Assembly (NCBI GenBank): GCA_965223155.1
Contig: CBDCVR010000005.1
Span: 1-11,179 of the forward strand
Reading direction: 5' to 3'
Length of the DNA: 11,179 nucleotides
From: Candidatus Multivoradales bacterium
GTDB lineage: Bacteria; Acidobacteriota; Thermoanaerobaculia; Multivoradales; JAHEKO01
Positions 95 to 11,179 of the stretch are shown piece by piece (the stretch's first letter is position 1; every line of letters starts with the position of its first letter). The notes under the pieces were generated by a model. That model saw only the letters and a program-made list of their open reading frames with translations, searched no databases and was not told the DNA's origin. A program made the position numbers and the translations under genes.

Positions 95-2290
<2,196 letters not shown>

Positions 2291-2321
2291 ATCGGAGCGG
2301 GTACTAGCGGAGACGCCGATC

Positions 2322-3715
2322 GTGTGTGGAATCTTTGGCATCGCCGGCCACGAGGACGCGGCCAACTACGCCTACCTGGGCCTTTATGCCCTCCAGCATC
2401 GCGGCCAGGAGAGCGCTGGCATGGTGAGCACGGACGGCAAGCGCATCCACGTCGAGCGCGGTATGGGCCACGTCGCGGACATCTTCTCGGAGCGGCGGCT
2501 GGCGCGCCTTCCCGGACGCTCGGCCATCGGGCACACCCGGTATTCGACCGCCGGGTCCAGTATCCGGACCAACGCCCAGCCGATCGTCTCCAAGACTTCG
2601 ATGGCGCGGTGGCGATCGTCCACAACGGCAACCTGGTCAACGCGCGGACGATCCGGCACGAGCTCGAGCTGGAGGGCGCGATCTTCCAGACCACGAGCGA
2701 TACCGAGGTAATCCTGCATCTGATGGCGCGGAACCCCCGCGCGGACGTCGTCGAGTCGCTGATGGTGGCGCTCGAACAGGTGCGCGGCGCGTACTCGATC
2801 CTGCTCCTGACGCCGGACGTGGTCGTGGCCGCGCGCGACCCGCATGGCTTCCGGCCCTGGCCATGGGCGACTGCCAGGGTGCGCCCGCCTTCGCCAGTGA
2901 GAGCTGCGCGTTTGATCTGTTGGAGGTCTCGGATCGCCGCGAGCTGGATCAGGGCGAGGTCGTGGTGGCGCGCTCGGGGTCGGTCGAAAGCTTCCGGCTG
3001 GCGAGTACCGCAACGCCGTCCCGCTGTCTTTTCGAGCACGTCTACTTCGCCCGCCCCGACAGCCGGATCTTCGGCACCAGCGTCTCGAAAGCGCGGCTCA
3101 AGATGGGCGCCCAGCTCGCGCGGGAGGCGCCGGTCGATGCCGACGTCGTCGTGCCCATTCCCGACAGCGGGCTCTTTGCCGCCCTCGGCTACGCTCGGGA
3201 AAGCGGGCTGCCCTTCGAGCAGGGGCTGGTTCGGAACCATTACGTGGGCCGCACCTTCATCGAGCCCAAGCAGTCGATCCGCCACTTCGGGGTCAAGGTC
3301 AAGCTGAACCCGGTGCGCGAGCTGATCGAAGGCCGCAAAGTCATTCTGGTTGACGACTCGATCGTGCGCGGCACGACCTCGCCCAAGATCGTCAAGATGG
3401 TGCGCGATGCCGGGGCGCGGGAAGTTCACGTCCGGATCTCGTGCCCGCCCACGGCCTGGCCCTGCCACTACGGCATCAACATGCCGACGCGCGAGGAGCT
3501 GATCGCTTTCCGATCACTCGGTGGAAGACATCGCTTCCTACATCCGAGCCGACAGCCTGGCCTATCTCTCGCTCGAGGGTACGCAGGCTTGCGTGTCCGG
3601 CCCCCGCGAGAGCTACTGCACGGCCTGCTGGACCGGCGAGTACCGCGAGCCGGTTGCCGAGATCGACGAGCGCCAGCGCGATCTGTTCCCGATCCGAACG
3701 GAGGACGAGGTGTGA
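2322..3715 (+). CDS. purF: Amidophosphoribosyltransferase PurF, with 3 apparent frameshifts (~2604, ~2856, ~3507)
   Basis: GTG start with GGAG at 2309-2312, giving MCGIFG (N-terminal nucleophile Cys). Then LQHRGQESAG, IGHTRYSTAG, HNGNLVN, SDTEVI, RDPHGFRP, CLFEHVYFARPDS, RNHYVGRTFI, the PRPP-binding VDDSIVRGTT, SLAYLSLEG, CTACWTGEY. Stop TGA at 3713-3715. Confidence 0.95.
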
Positions 3716-4797
3716 GCGGAGCCGATTCCAGCTCGGCGGATCGTTCGAGCGCCTACGCTCGGGCGGGCGTTGACATCAACGCCCAGGACGAGGCTCTGGA
3801 GCGCGTCAAGGCGCTGGTCAAAGACACCTTCACTTCCGGAGTCCTCTCCGACGTCGGAAGCTTCGGAGGGCTGTTTCAGCCGGATCTTTCGGCGACGGCC
3901 GAACCGGTGCTGGTGGCCTCGGCCGACGGCGTCGGCACCAAGCTGCGGGTGGCGCAGATGATGGGCGACTACTCGACGGTGGGCGAGGACCTGGTCAACC
4001 ATTGCGTCAACGACATCCTGGTTCAGGGGGCGCGGCCGCTCTTTTTTCTGGACTACGTGGGCGCCGGCGTGCTCGAGCCCGAGGCCATGGAGGCGCTGGT
4101 TGCTGGAGTGGCGAGGGGGTGCCGGCGCAACGGCTGTGCTCTCCTGGGTGGCGAGACCGCCGAGATGCCCGGCTTCTACGATGCCGGCGACTACGAGCTC
4201 GTCGGCTTCATCGTGGGAATGGTGGATCGCGGACGCCTCCTCGACGGCAGCCGCGTGGAGCCGGGCGACCTGCTGATTGGCCTACCCTCGACCGGTCTCC
4301 ACACCAATGGGTACTCGCTGGCGCGCAAGGTCTTCTTCGAAGAGCTGGGCCTGGCGGTGAGCGACCGGCTGCCCGGCTCCGACTCGGGGGCGACCGTCGG
4401 CGAGCTGCTCCTGGCCGTTCATCGCTCGTATCTCCCCGAGGTCGCGCCGCTTCTCGACCATCCCGCGTTGCGCGCCCTGGCCCACGTGACCGGCGGCGGG
4501 CTGACCGACAACGTGCCGCGGGTTCTGCCGGACGGGACGCATGCCTCGATCCGCGTCGGCTCGTGGGAGATCCCGGAGCTCTTCCACCTGCTCCAAGAGG
4601 CCGGCAAGGTCGACTCCGAGGAGATGTTGCGGGTCTTCAACATGGGAATCGGCATGGTCCTGGTCGCCGCCGCCGACGGCGTTGCCGAGGTTCTCGAAGC
4701 GCTCCGGACCGCCGGCCTTCCGGGAGTGCCGATCGGGACGGTCCAGGCCGGCGGTAGCGGCGTCGCGTATTCGTTCGCTGGAACGACTGAGTCCTGA
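3712..4797 (+). CDS. purM: Phosphoribosylformylglycinamidine cyclo-ligase (AIR synthetase) PurM
   Basis: GTG at 3712 overlaps the purF stop (GTGA), with GGAGG at 3700-3704. Motifs YARAGVDI, FGGLF, ADGVGTK, CVNDILVQGARPLFFLDY, GGETAEMPG, GLHTNGYSL, HVTGGGL, FNMGIG. The frame is intact. Confidence 0.96.
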   Translation: MSGADSSSADRSSAYARAGVDINAQDEALERVKALVKDTFTSGVLSDVGSFGGLFQPDLSATAEPVLVASADGVGTKLRVAQMMGDYSTVGEDLVNHCVNDILVQGARPLFFLDYVGAGVLEPEAMEALVAGVARGCRRNGCALLGGETAEMPGFYDAGDYELVGFIVGMVDRGRLLDGSRVEPGDLLIGLPSTGLHTNGYSLARKVFFEELGLAVSDRLPGSDSGATVGELLLAVHRSYLPEVAPLLDHPALRALAHVTGGGLTDNVPRVLPDGTHASIRVGSWEIPELFHLLQEAGKVDSEEMLRVFNMGIGMVLVAAADGVAEVLEALRTAGLPGVPIGTVQAGGSGVAYSFAGTTES

Positions 4798-4800
4798 CAG

Positions 4801-4819
4801 GGCCTGCTGGGCTCAGGCC
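4801..4819. terminator. Short hairpin between the convergent purM and sulfotransferase stops (possible terminator)
   Basis: GGCCTG-ctgggct-CAGGCC inverted repeat in the 35-bp gap between convergent stop codons. There is no U-tract, so support is weak. Confidence 0.3.
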
Positions 4820-4832
4820 GGCTCGCCCCGCT

Positions 4833-5691
4833 TCAGCGCTCGTGGCGCGGGCGGTAGAGAGCCACCTGCTCGGTCAGCCGGCGGAAGGCTCGCCAGAGCT
4901 CGTAGACGGGGCCGTCCCGCCACCGGCAGCGCCGGGCCAGGACGCGCCGGGCGCTTTCGAGCTCTGCCGTCGAAAACCTGCCCGCGAGCTCACGCTCGAA
5001 CGACTCCTGCGCGAAGCGGTGAAGCTCCGTGTCGAGCTGGTTGTTCCGGGCAATGAGCTCGCGGATGGCTGCACTCGGCTGGCTCTTGCCGCGAGTTACG
5101 TTGCGTCTTCGGTAGGCGACGTCCCGAAACGACTCGGGATAGCGACGGTTCAAGACGAGCATCGCGTCGGCAAAGCTGGTGAGCGGAAAGAGATGGAGGT
5201 GGCCGCGCTCGACGAGCGTCCGGACTTGCTCGACGGCGTCCCGATCGGCGTCGACCGCCAGGTGGCGTAGCTGGCCGTCGCCGTAGCGGTCGCGTGGGAA
5301 ATTAGCCCTCCTCGAACACCCACCGGGCGTAGTCGTCGAGAGCCATCCGGCGCGGAGCCTCCATGGCCCGGCCGGTTCGCAGGCCCTGGTGGTAGTTGTA
5401 GTGCGACAGGAAGCGGTCTACCGGATCCCGGACGAAGGAGATGGTGACGAAGGGCCTGGGGGCGTTTTCGTAGTCGAGAGCCGCCGGGAAGCCATGGCTC
5501 GAGAAGGCGCGAAGAAACGGACGCTGTTCGAGAAGCCGGTTCATCTCCCACGGCGTCTTGGGGCTCAGGTTGGACAAGAGCCCGTAGTCCGAGACCCATC
5601 CGGGCCGGAAGTTCTCCCACAGGACGGTGTCGAAGGAGGTGCCGCCGCACTTCTGGATGTGGGCGTGCAGAAAGACGGGATCGGTCGGCAT
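4833..5691 (-). CDS. PAPS-dependent sulfotransferase (Sulfotransfer_2-like), about 285 aa after correcting one +1 indel near 5304
   Basis: N-terminal FLHAHIQKCGGTS (5'-phosphosulfate-binding loop), SFVRDPVDRFLSHYNY (3'-phosphate-binding motif) and C-terminal NNQLDTELHRFAQESF (NxxDxxLY-type motif). Removing one base at ...GAG GGC (T) AAT TTC... joins ORF 5302-5691 to ORF 4833-5162 in one open frame (EEG-NFPRDRYGDGQLRHLAV...DAMLVLNRRY). Confidence 0.85.
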
Positions 5692-5803
5692 TGCGAGGGG
5701 CCTGGTGACCGGCCGATGGTACCGCTAGACCGGTGCCGCGGTGGATCGCCGGTTGCCTGCGCTACGATGACCCCCTACCCTGTCGAAGACAAGGAGAGAT
5801 GCC
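5692..5803. promoter_or_regulatory. Divergent intergenic region with candidate -10 boxes and an RBS
   Basis: TACCAT on the - strand (5716-5721) upstream of the sulfotransferase. TACGAT on the + strand (5763-5768) and AAGGAG (5791-5796) 7 nt before ATG 5804. No convincing -35 boxes. Confidence 0.4.
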
Positions 5804-8800
5804 ATGCCGGAGAACCGTCGGCTCGGTCAGAGGTTGGGCGCTCGCGCGCCCCGAATGCGAATGAGAGCGATAGCGGGTGCCATCTTCGGCGCTTGCCTGG
5901 CACTGGCTTCGCTTGCCGCGCTTGTAGGCCACGACCCCGCGCGGGCGGGAACGCTCGGCACCAACGGCGACCTCAAGCTCTCGGCGAACTTCCGCTTCGC
6001 GCCCACCCGAGCCCAGCTCGAGGAAGCCAAGCGCTCGCTGGTCTGGTTCGGACGGCTTCTGTGCGACGCGACCGAAGGCCAGATTCACTTGCGCCAAGTG
6101 GAGCTCAACGCCGGCGCCCGCTTCGAAGACGGAGCCGATATCTGGTACCACGCCGAACCACTGATCGCGAGCGTGGCGAACAACAAGTGGGACGGCAGCG
6201 GCCTGGTTCGCCGCGACAGCCACATCACGATCGGCAGGACCTACCTCGGCGACTCCGACACGATGCTCCACGAGTTCGGTCATTACGCCTTTGGCCTGGG
6301 TGAGCAGTACGCCATCGTGACCTCTGAATGTGGGGTGGGCCCGGGATTCGAGCCGGCCCTGGTGGACGAGCGCAACCACACTCCGATGCAGAATCTGGGC
6401 GGCGGCGTCGCGTGCGCCGCCGGCCCGCGGGCCGGAGAGTCCTGCACGCGGGATGCGGACTGCCCGCAGAGCACCTGCCGGGAGCGGCTGACGTCCGAGT
6501 TCAGCGTCAAGCAGAACCACGATCTGTTGCGCGGCGATGTTGGATGCCCCGGAGCGAAGGCGCTGTCCGAGCTCCGGATCCTCGGGGTCCTCAACACCGG
6601 CATCGTCTCCGGTCCGCTCGATGCCTCGACGGTGGCGTCGGCGACGCGCACGTCGGTCGCGACCCAGAACCTGCTGATTCCCGATGGCCGCTCGATTCAG
6701 ACGGCAAGTCAGCTTCAGGTCTTTGTCGGTCAGGAGCGCCGGGGCGAGTGGGCCGCCGTCGTGGGGATGCCCGACGACTCGGCGGGTGCCGCTCCCGGAG
6801 CCTTGAAGCTCCTTGGCCGTTGGCGGATGACCTTCAATGCCGAGGGAGGGCTCAAGACGATCTCCGGTCCGGATTGGGTCCGCGTGCGTCGAGGGGGCGG
6901 CCTGCCGCACCTCGATTTCAAGGTCCTCTTCGGCCAGCCACGAGCGACCGGCATGGCGCCGGCCTGGTGGACCGAGCTCGTGGTCAACGACGCTCGCCGC
7001 CAGGTCCTCTTTTCCGAGACGGATGGCCGGTTTCCCTGCCGCTGGTCGGCGTGCTCGACCCTGAAGATGTGGAACACGCGCACCAAGGGCTGGGAGACGA
7101 CCTCCCAGTCGATCGTTCACAACTTTCGGTCCGAATGGGAGACCCTGGTGCGGAACTACCCGTTCTTGAAGGCTCCAACCGGACTGCCTGTAGCAGCCGC
7201 GCCCGCCTCCTGTGCCAAGCCTCCCAAGTTCGTCGAGAAGGTCCAGGGTGTGGACCAAGTGGTTCTGGTCCTCGACCGTTCCGGCAGCATGCGCCACGCG
7301 GTGACCGTGCCCCATGGCGAGGTCTGCGCCAACGGTCTCGACGATGATGGCGACGGCATCACCGATGAGACGGTCTGCGCCGAGAGCCGGCTTACCTTCG
7401 CCAAGGCCGGTGCCCGCGCCTTCCTCGAGCTACAGAAATCGGCAGGGATCGAGGTCGGGATCGTCGACTTCAGTAGCCGTACGAATCTGGCCAAGCCGGT
7501 TGCCGTGCTCGACGCGTCATCGTTTTCGAGCCTTGCTGCCACGGTCGATGGCCTTCACTCCGGCGGCTTGACCGCGATCGGCGACGCCCTGACCCGGGCC
7601 GGAGCCGAGCTCAAGCGCGTGCGCGCTTCGGGCCGCGGCCAGGCGGTGATCCTGTTCTCGGACGGCCAGAGCAATGCCGGCAGTGACCCGCGCGCGGCGT
7701 CGAAGGTTCTGGACGCGGCCGGAGTTCGGGTGTTGACGGTTGCCGCTGGACCCGGAGCCGACAAGAAGACACTGGGCGAGATCGCCACGATCGCCATGCC
7801 CATCGAGGACTTTGTCGAGCTGCCCGCGGTGTATGCGGAGCTGGCGGCCGCCTACGGCGGCGCGGCCTTGCTTCATCCTCGGCTGCGGGTGGCCCAGGCC
7901 TGGGATCTTCAGACCGCGCTCGAGGAGCGTCCCGAATTGGATGGCATCGTCGAGCCCGAGACGGTCGTCGAACTGCCGGTCGAGGCGGGGAGCGAGGCAC
8001 TGGTGGTCTTCGTGGGTGCGGCCAACCGGGACACCTCGATGTGGCACCCGCGCATCGAGCTTGTCGGCCCACGCGGAGAGCGGTTCGATCAGGACGATCC
8101 AGCGGTCGTTCGGGACGGTCACTACGCTGTCTTCCGGGTCCCGGCGCCCGCGGAGGGCGTCTGGAGCCTGCGTCTCGGGCCACAAGGCCCGGCGCTTCAG
8201 GAGAGCACGGTGGTGTCGTACCTCGAAGGTGCCTCTGCCGATCTCGCCGCCGACGTCTTGCCCAAGATTGTGCCTTCGGGCGGGACCGCCGTGGTGACCG
8301 CCGGGGCCGTCTACGAGTTGCCCCTGGGCGACGGTATCGAGCTCGAGGGGAGCCTGCGCCGGCCCGACGGAACCGTCGAGGCGCTTCGTTTCGATCGCGA
8401 GATCTTGGGCGCCTGGAGCGCCGAGACTCCCGCGCTGGTCGAACGCGGCACCTACCGTGTCGACGTCCGGCTGCGCGTTCCGGCGGGTACCGAGGTCGAG
8501 CCCACCGAGCCGATGTATCCGGGGCCGCCGATCGACCTGGCCGTGCCGGCGTTCGAGCGTGCCACGACCTTGACCGTCTTGGTCGCCGACGGGCCGCTGC
8601 CTGCGTGTACGACCGACGACTGCGACGGCGATGGTGTGCCGAACGAGTGGGAGTGCGCGGGCGACGACGACGGCGATGGCTGGCCCGGAGAGCGCGATAT
8701 CGATGCCGACGGCGATGAGATTGCGGACGCCGCCGAGGGCTTCGGCGACGACGACGGCGACGGCGTTCCCAACCTGTGCGATCCAGCCACGCCGCTCGAT

Positions 8801-9106
8801 CTGGAGCGGGCGATTCTGGCCGAGGAGCAGGTCCTGGCGCTGGCCTGTGAGGATTCGGTGCGGGCCGGCGCCTTGCTCGCGAGCTCGCTCGAAGAGATTG
8901 CCGGCGTGCTTCCGGCCCTCGAGCGGGGATCCGCGGTTGGGGACCCCGACGCCGAAGCGCGGCTGGCAGCGTTGTCTCGGATTCTGACGTTCAAGGAGGA
9001 AGCTCTGCGTTTGAGTGAGATGGACGGTGCCTGCCGGCAGGTCCGGCAGCTTCTCGAGTCCGCCCTGGAGCTAGAGCGCGGTCTTGTGCAGGAGGACGTG
9101 GACTAG
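5804..9106 (+). CDS. Exported CLCA-like zinc metallopeptidase / VWA-domain protein with Ca-binding repeats (1100 aa)
   Basis: Intact 1100-aa ORF with a good RBS. Basic N-terminus plus hydrophobic segment ending in ARA-G (signal peptide-like). HEFGHYAFGLGEQY at 6269-6310. VWA MIDAS elements: VLVLDRSGSM (from ~7259), TAIGDAL (7571), ILFSDG (Asp at 7661). Beta-sandwich segments follow, then DxDGDG repeats at 8606-8782. Confidence 0.88.
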   Translation: MPENRRLGQRLGARAPRMRMRAIAGAIFGACLALASLAALVGHDPARAGTLGTNGDLKLSANFRFAPTRAQLEEAKRSLVWFGRLLCDATEGQIHLRQVELNAGARFEDGADIWYHAEPLIASVANNKWDGSGLVRRDSHITIGRTYLGDSDTMLHEFGHYAFGLGEQYAIVTSECGVGPGFEPALVDERNHTPMQNLGGGVACAAGPRAGESCTRDADCPQSTCRERLTSEFSVKQNHDLLRGDVGCPGAKALSELRILGVLNTGIVSGPLDASTVASATRTSVATQNLLIPDGRSIQTASQLQVFVGQERRGEWAAVVGMPDDSAGAAPGALKLLGRWRMTFNAEGGLKTISGPDWVRVRRGGGLPHLDFKVLFGQPRATGMAPAWWTELVVNDARRQVLFSETDGRFPCRWSACSTLKMWNTRTKGWETTSQSIVHNFRSEWETLVRNYPFLKAPTGLPVAAAPASCAKPPKFVEKVQGVDQVVLVLDRSGSMRHAVTVPHGEVCANGLDDDGDGITDETVCAESRLTFAKAGARAFLELQKSAGIEVGIVDFSSRTNLAKPVAVLDASSFSSLAATVDGLHSGGLTAIGDALTRAGAELKRVRASGRGQAVILFSDGQSNAGSDPRAASKVLDAAGVRVLTVAAGPGADKKTLGEIATIAMPIEDFVELPAVYAELAAAYGGAALLHPRLRVAQAWDLQTALEERPELDGIVEPETVVELPVEAGSEALVVFVGAANRDTSMWHPRIELVGPRGERFDQDDPAVVRDGHYAVFRVPAPAEGVWSLRLGPQGPALQESTVVSYLEGASADLAADVLPKIVPSGGTAVVTAGAVYELPLGDGIELEGSLRRPDGTVEALRFDREILGAWSAETPALVERGTYRVDVRLRVPAGTEVEPTEPMYPGPPIDLAVPAFERATTLTVLVADGPLPACTTDDCDGDGVPNEWECAGDDDGDGWPGERDIDADGDEIADAAEGFGDDDGDGVPNLCDPATPLDLERAILAEEQVLALACEDSVRAGALLASSLEEIAGVLPALERGSAVGDPDAEARLAALSRILTFKEEALRLSEMDGACRQVRQLLESALELERGLVQEDVD
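8606..8782 (+). repeat. Coding D-rich Ca-binding repeats (thrombospondin type 3-like)
   Basis: Four units: DCDGDGVPNEWEC, DDDGDGWPGERD, DADGDEIADAAEG, DDDGDGVPNLCD. Confidence 0.75.
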
Positions 9107-9107
9107 C

Positions 9108-9123
9108 CCGGCCTTCGGGCCGG
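9108..9123 (+). terminator. GC-rich hairpin immediately after the stop of the large ORF (putative intrinsic terminator or RNA-stabilising stem)
   Basis: CCGGCC-TTCG-GGCCGG, a perfect 6-bp stem with a C(UUCG)G tetraloop, starting 2 nt after the TAG. It lacks a U-tract. Confidence 0.55.
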
Positions 9124-9220
9124 TGGGCGGATGAGGTCAGGAGGCGAGGGCAAGGGTCCCCGGGGCCGTCATGGACCTGGGATTCAAGAAGCCGGCCGGA
9201 GGACCCGGGCTCCGAAAGCG

Positions 9221-9226
9221 TAGAAT
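9221..9226 (+). promoter_or_regulatory. Candidate sigma70 -10 element upstream of purN
   Basis: TAGAAT (5/6 match to TATAAT) in otherwise GC-rich DNA, 6 nt before GTG 9233. No Shine-Dalgarno sequence before GTG 9233 or ATG 9239. Confidence 0.5.
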
Positions 9227-9232
9227 CTGGCG

Positions 9233-9841
9233 GTGACAATGCGGGTGGCGATCCTGCTCTCCGGCCGGGGCTCCAATTTCTTGGCGCTCCACGGTGCAAT
9301 CGAACGCGGAGAGTTGCCGGCCGAGCTGGCGGTCGTGATCTCGAACGAAGCCGAGGCGCAGGGGCTCGAGAAGGCTCGCTCGCTGCGCCTGCCCAACGTT
9401 TGCATCCCGCACCGGCTGGAGAGCTCCCGAGCCGCCCACGAAGACAAGCTCCTGGCCGCCCTCGATCACGCCGGGGTGGATTGGATCTGCCTGGCTGGAT
9501 ACATGCGGCTCTTGTCCGCGGAGTTCGTTGCCCGCTATCCGCTGCGGGTGCTCAACATTCATCCTTCGCTCTTACCCGCCTTTCCAGGTCTCAACGCCCA
9601 GAAGCAAGCCGTTCGCTGGGGCGCCAAGGTCTCGGGCTGCACCGTCCATTTCGTTGACGAAGAGCTGGACCACGGCGCCATCGTGGCGCAGAAGGCGGTG
9701 CCGGTGCGGGATGACGACAACGCGCTCTCGTTGTCGGCGCGGATCCTGGCCGAGGAACACAAGCTCTATCCGGAGGCGCTTCGGCAGCTTCTGACCCGGC
9801 GCTGGCGGATCGATGGCCGGCGGGTTGTGTTCTCAGGCTGA
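9233..9841 (+). CDS. purN: Phosphoribosylglycinamide formyltransferase PurN
   Basis: AILLSGRGSN, CLAGYMRLL, LNIHPSLLPAFPG, GCTVHFVDEELDHGAIVAQ and RILAEEHKLYP motifs. Start is either GTG 9233 or ATG 9239. Confidence 0.97.
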   Translation: MTMRVAILLSGRGSNFLALHGAIERGELPAELAVVISNEAEAQGLEKARSLRLPNVCIPHRLESSRAAHEDKLLAALDHAGVDWICLAGYMRLLSAEFVARYPLRVLNIHPSLLPAFPGLNAQKQAVRWGAKVSGCTVHFVDEELDHGAIVAQKAVPVRDDDNALSLSARILAEEHKLYPEALRQLLTRRWRIDGRRVVFSG

Positions 9842-9847
9842 GGCGCG

Positions 9848-11179
9848 ATGCAGGAAGCCATGGACGAAAGCCGGATCGACCGCGACGAGGAAGCCGGGAG
9901 TGCTTTCGGCTGGGCGCGGCGGGTACTTGTGGCCGTGGCGATTCTCGTGGCGGCGGTGGTCCTCGGCTACCTTATCGGCGCCAACTGGTTTCTGAATTCC
10001 TCCTGGGGCAAGGCGCGGCTGAATCGCAAGCCGGAGAAGCTCTCGATGAGCTGGGAGCGCGCCTGGACCGTGATCCCGGGACTCGTGCATCTTACGCAGT
10101 TCGATCTCGCCGGCCGCGCGCGTCGAGCCACCTGGGAGACGCACATGGACTCGGGCCGGGTGTGGATCTGGCTGCCGTCCCTGGTGCGCCGCCATATGCG
10201 GGTTGTCTCCGGCTCCGGCCGGGGTGTTTCGGTGGCGGTCGACACGTTGCCGCCGCCGACCACGCCACGGCCCGAACGGCGGCGGCGCGGCTGGCGCATC
10301 TCTCTTGATCGTCTCCGGCTCGACGAGATCGAGCGTTTGCGTATGAACGAGTACAGCTTGACCGGCCCGGGCAGGATTCTGGGCGGCGCATTCTTCGAGA
10401 TTCGCGGGCCGATGCGGCTCGACTTCGAGCGGCTGCAATTTCCGGAGGCGCAGCTTGTTGCCGGTGACGCTGTGGTGGCCGAGTCGGTAGCCCTGGACGC
10501 GAGCCTCGAAGTCGAGGAGATCACCATCGGCGAGACCACGGTCGCGGATCTTCTTGCCGAGCTCTCGGGCGAGATCGATCTCGCCGCTCGCACCTCGAGC
10601 CTGGGTTTCCTTGCCGCCTATCTCGAAGCGTTCCCCTGGATCCGGATCGGAGGCGCCGGCGACCTGGCCCTGGATCTCGAGGTCAGCCACGGCTGGCTGG
10701 CTCCCGGAAGTAGCCTGACCTTCACCGGGCCGGAGCTCGCCGCTACCTACTTCGGACTGCGGGCCGAGGGCTCCGGGTCGGTCACCGGCGGCGTCCCGGA
10801 GGACGCCAGCCACGTACGGCTCGAAGCTACGCTCGATCGGTTCGGGGTCGTGCGTCCCGCCGACGGCCGGCGCCTGCTCGAGGGCGAGGGCCTGCGCCTC
10901 GCCCTCACCAACGATTCGAATGCCATCGACCGGCCCGCGGAAGGCATCGCCGTCGAAGTCGAGCTGCCCCGGCGAGCGTGCCGGAGGTGGCGGCGCTGTC
11001 GGCGTACCTGCCCGAGAGCCTCGATCTGGAGATCCGCGGTGGCTCGGGCGAGATCGAGGCCCGGCTCGACTACGACAGCGTCGAGGATCTGGGCTCGGGC
11101 TCGCTGGTGGTCTCCGGCAAGCGTATCGCCGCCGCCTTCGAGGACGCGGCGTTTGTGGCCGATGCGCGGCTCGAGGCCA
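9848..11179 (+). CDS. Membrane-anchored, beta-rich envelope protein, possibly AsmA-like (partial, runs off the window; probable -1 indel near 10968)
   Basis: Open frame from ATG 9848 (or 9860) with no stop before the window end, so it is missing from the ORF track. Reads MQEAMDESR...WARRVLVAVAILVAAVVLGYLIGANWFLNSSWGKARLNRKPEKLSMSWERAWTVIPGLVHL..., i.e. one N-terminal TM helix followed by alternating hydrophobic/polar beta-strand patterns. Protein-like sequence continues in another frame after the C-run at ~10966 (ASVPEVAALSAYLPESLDLEIRGGSGEIEARL). Confidence 0.7.
   Translation, partial: MQEAMDESRIDRDEEAGSAFGWARRVLVAVAILVAAVVLGYLIGANWFLNSSWGKARLNRKPEKLSMSWERAWTVIPGLVHLTQFDLAGRARRATWETHMDSGRVWIWLPSLVRRHMRVVSGSGRGVSVAVDTLPPPTTPRPERRRRGWRISLDRLRLDEIERLRMNEYSLTGPGRILGGAFFEIRGPMRLDFERLQFPEAQLVAGDAVVAESVALDASLEVEEITIGETTVADLLAELSGEIDLAARTSSLGFLAAYLEAFPWIRIGGAGDLALDLEVSHGWLAPGSSLTFTGPELAATYFGLRAEGSGSVTGGVPEDASHVRLEATLDRFGVVRPADGRRLLEGEGLRLALTNDSNAIDRPAEGIAVEVELPRRACRRWRRCRRTCPRASIWRSAVARARSRPGSTTTASRIWARARWWSPASVSPPPSRTRRLWPMRGSRP

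Follow-up and report, generated by a model that had tools for sequence, protein, structure and literature searches.

CLCA Proteins, Igalysins and a Bacterial Gene With Their Features

A recent preprint reports the first full structure of CLCA1 and describes the CLCA proteins as forming a new family of eukaryotic metzincins (10.1101/2025.10.18.683246). CLCA1 has the order MH-VWA-BSR-ID, in which the BSR is an 8-strand jellyroll that is followed by an inhibitory beta-sandwich, the ID. The zinc ligands are H156, H160 and D167, with Y169 beside the zinc, and an extension (G680-C727) between strand beta6, which contains K674 and R676, and strand beta7, which contains S729, R730 and T731, reaches into the active site and remains bound there after being cut (10.1101/2025.10.18.683246). 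The CLCA zinc motif HExxHxxxGxxDEY is common to the M64 igalysins (PMC3650047; 10.1101/2025.10.18.683246), and in CLCA1 as well as in the igalysins the Glu at the DEY position belongs to a second zinc site (10.1101/2025.10.18.683246). Here we describe a gene at positions 5804-9106 (+) of an 11,179-nucleotide stretch of DNA, hereafter the window, which is the entire contig CBDCVR010000005.1 of an acidobacterial genome (Candidatus Multivoradales bacterium; GCA_965223155.1). On balance, the gene product is probably a multidomain zinc endopeptidase that is secreted and falls in the metzincin branch of the igalysins and CLCAs, with a body ordered as in CLCA1 and with a latency loop that is deduced by analogy.

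Full-length bacterial CLCA proteins, and archaeal ones, were described in 2013, for example in Shewanella sp. MR-4 and Plesiocystis pacifica, and a transfer from animals to bacteria was proposed for them; M10 and CHAP heads were also reported on the CLCA architecture, and substituted active sites were noted as a CLCA trait (Lenart 2013; PMC3650047). The prokaryotic CLCA relatives recognised so far are a handful of presumed animal-derived xenologues (PMC3650047). In the later literature on bacterial CLCA-like or igalysin-VWA proteins, only the 2013 paper and the 2025 preprint proved relevant; members of the present family may already have been included in them.

The protein in the window is therefore no new kind of system. 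New are the size and breadth of an unnamed family to which it belongs, the position of this family between the igalysins and the CLCAs, and the decorations of its members. A preliminary description of the locus, made from the sequence alone, had called the architecture unusual; because full-length bacterial CLCA proteins have been described since 2013, the word fits the decorations and not the kind. The window reveals a large prokaryotic family, with no annotation other than 'VWA domain-containing protein', that has the body plan of CLCA and a zinc motif of the CLCA/igalysin form. The family offers a tractable bacterial model for the possible regulation of such a protease by a VWA domain and a C-terminal loop, and it supplies natural variants lacking the catalytic Glu together with the sequence diversity needed for testing the direction of CLCA gene transfer.

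Gene and Overall Domain Order

The open reading frame (ORF) comprises 1100 codons plus a stop, begins with ATG, and is preceded by a Shine-Dalgarno sequence, AAGGAG (5791-5796, +), 7 nt 5' of the start codon. It is a real gene and not a chance frame, because it has full-length homologues, loci in metagenome-assembled genomes (MAGs) of many phyla and a confidently predicted fold. The fourteen motifs on which a collinearity with animal CLCA proteins had been proposed are all present in the 1100-aa translation, and in the order quoted: LLCDATEGQIHLRQVEL (residues 85-101), ADIW (111-114), HEFGHYAFGLGEQY (156-169), SEFSVKQNHD (231-240), RSEWETL (441-447), PPKF (472-475), VVLVLDRSGSM (486-496), TAIGDAL (590-596), ILFSDG (616-621), PRIELVGPRG (749-758), FRVPAPAEGVWSLRL (776-790), RRPDGTVEAL (852-861), GTYRVDVR (882-889) and FERATT (917-922).

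A full-length AlphaFold2 model covering all 1100 residues, built from a 58-row alignment, has a mean pLDDT of 89.5 and a pTM of 0.86, and a separate model of residues 46-480 has a pLDDT of 86.6. The modelled order is a signal helix, a metzincin head with a beta-rich insert (256-406), a VWA domain (483-686, with a loop at 497-528), a jellyroll of 8-9 strands (688-808), a beta-sandwich, acidic repeats and four helices. The protein thus goes beyond a lone HExxH or VWA domain, as had been proposed: the metzincin, VWA, jellyroll and beta-sandwich domains follow one another as in CLCA1. The likeness extends to the strand counts (the model was compared with the text description of CLCA1 rather than superposed on it), to the compact predicted arrangement, to a sizeable Cys-stabilised stretch that separates the active-site helix from the C-terminal helices, and to secretion, in our protein a deduced property, without a prodomain.

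Residues 1-48 (5804-5947, +) have a basic N-terminus, a hydrophobic helix (residues 18-41, modelled at low pLDDT), an A-x-A sequence before G49 and no lipobox Cys; A48 and G49 are invariant in 14/14 aligned sequences. These features point to a Sec signal peptide with cleavage at A48/G49. The first strand of the head begins at residue 56, about 7 residues past this putative cleavage site, which leaves the head without a prodomain.

Metzincin Head

Residues 49-250 (5948-6553, +) form the N-terminal part of a metzincin catalytic domain, with a sheet, a backing helix (69-89) and an active-site helix (151-163). The features of the metzincin clan fold, namely a twisted sheet, a backing helix, an active-site helix and a C-terminal helix, are all present in the model. 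The zinc motif HEFGHYAFGLGEQY (residues 156-169; 6269-6310, +) reads H156-E157-x-x-H160-x-x-x-G164-x-x-E167-Q168-Y169 in its extended form, that is, HExxHxxxGxx[D/E]xY with the nearby Tyr as in the CLCA1 head. By analogy with H156, H160, D167 and Y169 of CLCA1, residues H156, H160 and E167 are the likely zinc ligands and E157 the likely general base; H156, E157, H160, E167, Q168 and Y169 bear the same numbers as in CLCA1 by coincidence. The third ligand is Glu rather than the Asp of CLCA1.

In the family described below, the motif HxxxHxxx.xx[DE]xY is present in 156 of 162 proteins, with both His and the Tyr invariant in all 156. Position 2 is Glu in 145 proteins, Leu in 9, Val in 1 and Gln in 1; position +4 is Gly in 126; position +7 is Asp in 130 and Glu in 26; and position +8 is Glu in 79 and Gln in 53. 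The conserved Gly at +4 and the acidic ligand at +7 led us to reject membership in CLCA_X, the active-site consensus of which is HExxHxxxD (PMC3650047). A candidate Met-turn methionine, M195 (6386-6388, +), is Met in 56/58 aligned sequences.

The family alignment splits the heads into two types. Type B heads have E168 and three Cys, namely C181, C234 and, at two residues from the Met on its N-terminal side, C193; together these could plausibly make a second zinc site of the igalysin kind. Heads of type A, including that of the window protein, have G181, S/T193, S234 and a variable E/Q at 168; the window protein thus probably binds one zinc. A four-Cys knot (C204, C214, C220 and C225; 6413-6478, +) is confined to the type A subfamily, as judged from a residue co-occurrence table.

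A natural variation at the active site is seen in 11 of the 156 proteins, in which the catalytic Glu is replaced (9 Leu, 1 Val and 1 Gln). A subclade with this replacement (P0004, P0006-P0010, P0026, P0028 and P0032; loci L008, L013 and L015) retains both His, the Asp, the Tyr, the metal-ion-dependent adhesion site (MIDAS) of the VWA domain and a Glu in the candidate latency loop, and its members are apparently natural pseudoproteases.

The C-terminal subdomain of the protease is interrupted by a beta-rich insert (residues 251-410; 6554-7033, +) like domain D2 of the flagellar hook protein FlgE. In a Foldseek search with residues 46-480, FlgE D2 structures came first (E=2.4e-6 and weaker), followed by snapalysin (2.2e-3), ADAM10, MMPs and ADAM33. 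The FlgE-like domain is taken to be inserted within the C-terminal subdomain because the alignments to metzincins start at model residue 7 and run on to 409-433. It is present in long-form members (9/14 in alignment A1) and missing from short forms. To our knowledge, a FlgE D2-like domain in a protease has not been reported. The rest of the subdomain (residues 411-480; 7034-7243, +) contains helices 415-420, 434-438, 444-451 and 468-471 and a strand, 475-479, which directly precedes the VWA domain in the model. ADAM17, ADAMTS, CpaA, Amuc_1438, OgpA and archaemetzincin are structural neighbours of this protein and of CLCA1 alike.

VWA Domain, Beta Domains and Candidate Latency Loop

The VWA domain (residues 481-686; 7244-7861, +) is the only domain that Pfam recognises in the whole protein (PF00092, 51 bits, E=2.7e-13; gathering score 23.8 bits), and Foldseek matches to VWA structures support it. 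Its MIDAS is complete (D491, S493, S495, T590 and D620); T590 is near-invariant (at least 90%) and the other four residues are invariant in the family. The VWA structure of CLCA1, 6pyo, is the third-best Protein Data Bank (PDB) sequence match of the family profile (7.7e-8). Directly after the DxSxS of the MIDAS lies an acidic loop bounded by C508 and C525 (residues 506-529; 7319-7390, +), with D513-D515, D517, D521 and E522 and ten invariant columns; it has a weak match to an NCBIfam acidic double-disulfide repeat (E=0.0012) and probably binds Ca. This loop and the FlgE-D2-like insert distinguish the protein from CLCA1. In the proposed mechanism, the MIDAS and the flanking acidic loop would capture a ligand or substrate outside the cell.

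Two beta domains follow. Residues 687-810 (7862-8233, +) form a jellyroll or GBD-like domain of 8-9 strands, placed as the BSR of CLCA1. Weak matches to PF23560 (GBD_Hemicentin) occur in this region in 5/14, 3/58 and 4/65 relatives (best 7.5e-5 among the 14). Residues 811-930 (8234-8593, +; model strands 812-819 to 917-927) form a beta-sandwich placed as the inhibitory domain. Its last two strands, 882-892 and 917-927, contain residues that are strongly conserved among 58 sequences, namely G882 (58/58), Y884 (57/58), R919 (57/58) and F917 (49/58). They are joined by a 24-residue loop (residues 893-916; 8480-8551, +), which by its position corresponds to the beta6-beta7 extension of CLCA1 (about 47 residues) and is a candidate latency or self-cleavage loop. 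E902 in the loop is invariant (58/58) and residue 901 is Gly in 57/58, the window protein having Thr. Residues 901-910 have the lowest pLDDT of the sandwich domain (67). The G901/E902 pair is retained even in the subclade without the catalytic Glu.

By analogy with CLCA1, the loop of the last beta domain would lie in the active-site cleft, keeping the enzyme latent, being cut, or both. Docking of residues 46-480 with residues 808-932 gave a score of 0.53 against 0.01 for the best control, the runs sharing at least 54% of contacts with a partner pLDDT of at least 78, which lends weak support. In calibration the mark was reached by 58/80 solved complexes and by 2/110 mismatched pairs, and both mismatches, with only 7 of the 80 complexes, did so at scores no higher than 0.60; as a custom alignment was used here, these counts hold roughly. 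Because docking supports it weakly, the latency-loop mechanism is presented as an analogy with CLCA1 and not as a result.

A Prokaryotic Family Between CLCA and Peptidase_M64

A word-indexed search of 5.8 billion proteins returned 14 relatives, among them the second copy from the window's own genome (99% identity); the other 13 share 30-40% identity, in most cases along 84-98% of the length. When one genome per species was scanned, 14 loci came to light, in MAGs carrying the labels Gammaproteobacteria, Deltaproteobacteria, Blastocatellales, Pyrinomonadaceae, Parvularculaceae, Phaeodactylibacter, Bacteroidota, Binatia, Planctomycetota (two), Phycisphaerales and Polyangiaceae, with two unclassified. 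One of these, in the Polyangiaceae MAG (L018, 5755-8905), is split into three open pieces (5755-6567, 6698-6970 and 7067-8905) and is a pseudogene or an assembly error. A head profile (A2) built from the window and 13 loci was then used in a HMMER scan of 1.84 billion representatives of 50% identity clusters, where it matched 1463 proteins at E<=1e-3, 499 at E<=1e-10 and 138 at E<=1e-30. Members of the head family occur in MAGs with the labels Gamma-, Alpha- and Deltaproteobacteria, Blastocatellales, Pyrinomonadaceae, Planctomycetota, Bacteroidota, Polyangiaceae and Binatia, and in one of a Thermoplasmata archaeon.

Only two protease families, CLCA (PF08434; gathering score 25.6 bits) and Peptidase_M64 (PF09471; 26 bits), recur in Pfam scans of the relatives, Peptidase_M6, Reprolysin_2 and Peptidase_M13 each being matched in one member. 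Among 14 members at E<=10, CLCA was matched in 1 (0.27) and Peptidase_M64 in 2 (best 0.0021); among 58 members at E<=0.01, in 2 (best 5.3e-4) and 5 (best 6.5e-4), respectively; and among 65 members at the same threshold, in 15 each (best 2.8e-6 and 7.5e-5). The Peptidase_M64 matches for which bit scores are available, 12.7 and 19.3 bits, lie below the cut-off.

Two relatives bridge the family to CLCA. P0163 (locus L024; 662 aa), which was found by a PF08434 search of another phylum, that of genome G401 (1/401 genomes), matches profile positions 201-256 of PF08434 with 27.5 bits (E=2.8e-6), over the cut-off, and in hhalign it aligns with the 58-sequence family profile (A4) over 574 columns, comprising the head, the VWA domain and both beta domains (E=6.7e-47). 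Residues 411-480 of the window protein align to the stretch of P0163 that matches PF08434. The second relative, P0193, matches PF08434 positions 125-152 with 24.6 bits (E=2.1e-5), just under the cut-off, and aligns with the family profile at E=3e-156. The head is thus related to CLCA_N by transitive evidence over two separate collinear segments, judging from profile comparisons. Because Peptidase_M64 is matched equally often, it is not specifically CLCA; it is best placed in the igalysin/CLCA branch, inside neither Pfam family and about equally far from both. The protein is a member of a large prokaryotic family without a Pfam name, lying between CLCA and Peptidase_M64. The acidic Cys loop of the VWA domain is missing from the P0163 subfamily.

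In the surveys that accompanied these searches, no bona fide CLCA_N gene was present in the 401 genomes of the window's phylum or in 4 genomes with family loci, and no eukaryotic CLCA appeared among the best 8000 word-sharing candidates scored in the family-profile homologue searches. Entries named 'Ca-activated chloride channel' in the homologue lists are ordinary bacterial VWA/VIT proteins and were set aside as evidence. A tblastn search with the head (E<=1e-4) had no match among 72,556 plasmids and none among 50,697 phage records, and so yielded neither a mobile vehicle nor CLCA_X-like phage relatives. The family profile also finds a related VWA-containing region in proteins with an S8 peptidase (P0230 and P0242) or Peptidase_M14 (P0254, P0255 and P0264), which suggests that the region might be a protease-swappable cassette.

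Comparison With Known Systems

The prokaryotic proteins of the 2013 paper resemble the present family in their head-VWA-beta architecture, their patchy distribution across phyla, the absence of a conserved neighbourhood and the substitution of catalytic residues in some members. They were defined by a CLCA_N match, with DUF1973 and FnIII, whereas the window protein has neither a CLCA_N match nor FnIII, and they came from a handful of strains, compared with 1463 clusters at 50% identity here (PMC3650047).

The M64 igalysins (the Thomasclavelia ramosa IgA peptidase, 9qdh/9qa6; BF3526, 4df9; PF09471) share the extended D-E-Y zinc motif, the lack of a prodomain, the sub-threshold PF09471 matches among the relatives (15/65, 5/58 and 2/14) and, in type B relatives, the Cys two residues before the Met. 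They differ in that the window protein lacks a PF09471 match as well as the second-zinc ligands, that is, the DEY Glu and three Cys, and in that a VWA-jellyroll-sandwich body is not part of the available descriptions of igalysins.

The ADAM, ADAMTS and snake-venom metalloproteases (M12B) are likewise multidomain secreted metzincins with ancillary binding domains. M12B enzymes use HExxHxxGxxH, with a third His, and their N-terminal prodomain carries a cysteine switch; in the window protein and its family position +7 is Glu or Asp and the Gly comes one residue later, and the window protein lacks a prodomain. The spacer of ADAMTS13 has been likened to the BSR of CLCA1 (10.1101/2025.10.18.683246).

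Hemicentin and VWA7 (PF23560, GBD_Hemicentin; PF23619, Ig_VWA7) have a jellyroll after the VWA domain, in keeping with the weak GBD_Hemicentin matches in relatives, and ESM Atlas clusters near residues 686-932 carry both families (0.85 and 0.78), serving as leads only. The window protein itself has no match to either at E<=10. Hemicentin and VWA7 proteins are not known to have a protease head. Two further ESM Atlas matches likewise serve only as leads, an unnamed and mainly arthropod cluster for residues 686-932 (0.92) and a CLCA cluster for the head (0.80).

Weighing the Assignment

Several results weigh against assigning the protein to the igalysin/CLCA branch with a CLCA1-like body. The protein (P0001) matches neither PF08434 nor PF09471 at E<=1, and its whole genome contains no PF08434 match at E<=10. 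TIGR00868 (hCaCC), the full-length CLCA model of NCBIfam, matches in 10/10 proteins scanned, including that of the window (E=1.6e-8; residues 526-791 on positions 319-569 of the 863-position profile); it is taken as evidence of the VWA domain only, because the match is confined to the VWA part (profile 292-481) in 9/9 relatives, and as a sign of collinearity past the VWA domain it was rejected. A BatA VWA model outscores it in 7/10 of these proteins, again including that of the window. The CLCA1 entry 9R2T is absent from both the PDB sequence matches and the Foldseek matches, where 6pyo alone represents CLCA1. Within the head, M195 stands only 28 residues past the third ligand, compared with about 70 in CLCA1, and Q168, G181, T193 and S234 replace the second-zinc Glu and the Cys/Cys/His ligands. 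The FnIII-like domain is missing, with repeats of the thrombospondin type 3 (TSP3) kind and a helical tail in its place. The docking is weak, results of this grade being wrong in most cases where the pairing was not already likely, and Peptidase_M64 is matched as frequently as CLCA among the relatives (15/65 each).

The idea of a near full-length CLCA homologue, put forward in the preliminary description, is therefore borne out in its body plan, its CLCA/igalysin zinc motif and its bridging relatives, and not in its profile matches, its equal nearness to M64 or its missing FnIII. The checks proposed there divided in the same way. With the CLCA N-terminal profile, the single sequence gives no significant HMMER match outside the generic VWA domain, whereas two relatives connect it to PF08434; the model is confident and has a CLCA1-like order, yet 9R2T is not among its fold matches. 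Scans of the separate domains at E<=10 (residues 46-250, 405-485, 695-835 and 830-935) returned nothing useful from Pfam. The Foldseek search with the full-length model is uninformative on the beta domains, because its matches were VWA-containing chains throughout, except for FlgE at rank 50.

Against this background, an alternative, which we consider improbable, is that an igalysin-like (M64-related) head was fused independently to a mobile VWA-jellyroll-Ig cassette, so that the CLCA order would be convergent. M64 matches that equal those of CLCA in frequency fit such a history, as do the type B heads, in which the Cys two residues before the Met and the DEY Glu reproduce the igalysin second-zinc pattern; related VWA regions also stand behind S8 and Peptidase_M14 heads, just as M10 and CHAP heads were reported in 2013 (PMC3650047), and clusters with GBD_Hemicentin and Ig_VWA7 are the nearest named neighbours of residues 686-932. 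However, the PF08434 matches of two relatives fall in distinct parts of the head and one of these relatives exceeds the cut-off, M64 proteins are described without a VWA module in the text available, and the head, the VWA domain and the two beta domains are kept together as a block (hhalign over 574-705 columns). Less probable still, and by some margin a poor bet, is that the protein is a non-catalytic adhesin, with a purely structural or binding head, acting through the VWA MIDAS and Ca-binding repeats. The 11/156 proteins without the catalytic Glu, including the close full-length relatives P0004 and P0006-P0010, show that the scaffold can be kept without catalysis, the MIDAS is fully conserved, and substituted active sites are a CLCA trait (PMC3650047); on the other side, the window protein retains H156, E157, H160, E167, Y169 and M195, and the Glu is retained in 145/156 family proteins.

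The remaining explanation, a dead gene or an assembly artefact on a redundant and error-prone contig, is very improbable. The window does duplicate C15:609503-620684 of its own assembly (97% identity, 24 indel columns), and purL is divided into three ORFs here compared with one 797-aa ORF in C15. The protease ORF is nevertheless unbroken in each copy, where the open frame is 1111 aa long and free of stops, the copies have no mismatches in 5000-8499, the Shine-Dalgarno sequence is present and the protein folds confidently. The reading as a secreted igalysin/CLCA-branch endopeptidase with a CLCA1-like body thus stays ahead of these explanations. A wider and doubtful proposal goes beyond it: the family, rather than being a stray copy of an animal gene, would be part of a large, ancient prokaryotic radiation that bridges the igalysins and the CLCAs and was already equipped with the head, VWA domain, jellyroll and latency sandwich, the metazoan CLCAs would descend from such a bacterial gene, and the catalytic zinc would be controlled by E902 as a 'glutamate switch'. 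A bacterial origin, if true, would reverse the animal-to-bacteria transfer proposed in 2013, and the 'CLCAsins' would be a prokaryote-born family.

C-Terminal Tail

Residues 931-999 (8594-8800, +) contain Asp-rich TSP3-like repeats (PF02412, E=0.083, with conserved Asp columns; up to 2.5e-10 in relatives), which probably bind Ca. They are followed by four helices (residues 1000-1013, 1018-1042, 1048-1070 and 1077-1098) in a tail of residues 1000-1100 (8801-9103, +) that has no Pfam match; CLCA1, by contrast, ends in an FnIII-like domain. C-termini are diverse across the family, including RTX, FG-GAP, HYR, PKD, Por_Secre_tail and OMP beta-barrel types.

Genomic Setting

The protease gene lies in a 4.4-kb segment (4798-9232) between purM (AIRS/AIRS_C), which ends at 4797, and purN, which starts at 9233. 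This segment is missing at the same position in 4/4 relatives examined (G131, G119, G314 and G005; one of the same genus, two of the same family and one of the same order), in which purM and purN are adjacent, and it is therefore a lineage-specific insertion. The gene would have arrived in this genome by this insertion. The head was found in 3 of the 401 genomes of the phylum, namely in its own genome and, as weak partial matches (E=3.2e-10 and 8.4e-4), in two others, and in none of the same genus or family. The two weak matches (L004, G093:C1:4329150-4329629; L005, G364:C11:62782-62892) lie in open frames of 1469 and 1129 aa, the N-terminus of that in G093 resembles that of the head family, and both may be remote members that differ in architecture. 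No neighbouring gene is conserved between 13 loci and the window, except for one downstream ORF common to the three closest loci with an HLxxH motif.

The same insertion contains a divergent 129-aa ORF (5302-5691, -) matching Sulfotransfer_2 (PF03567, E=4.8e-7, profile 9-99 of 252), which from this partial match is a truncated or frameshifted sulfotransferase, perhaps continuing in 4833-5162 (-). Within 4700-9900, no promoter-like sites were found; two terminator-like sites are within the count expected by chance.

The contig and its duplicate in C15 (locus L022) differ by 349 mismatches in a mosaic pattern, in which positions 5000-8499 and 9500-9999 are identical and the rest differs by about 5%. 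The duplication could reflect a strain-variant contig, inter-strain recombination or a true duplication, and the 24 indel columns suggest sequencing errors or decay in one copy. The three purL ORFs of the window are at 91-1386, 1402-1923 and 1659-2711 (+). A 644-aa ORF (2863-4797, +) has a phosphoribosyltransferase-like N-terminus fused to purM, and C15 has overlapping ORFs of 451 and 565 aa at this position. Downstream of purN, a 444-aa frame (9848-11179, +) that is open at the 3' end and has no Pfam match at E<=0.01 has a counterpart of 640 aa in C15.

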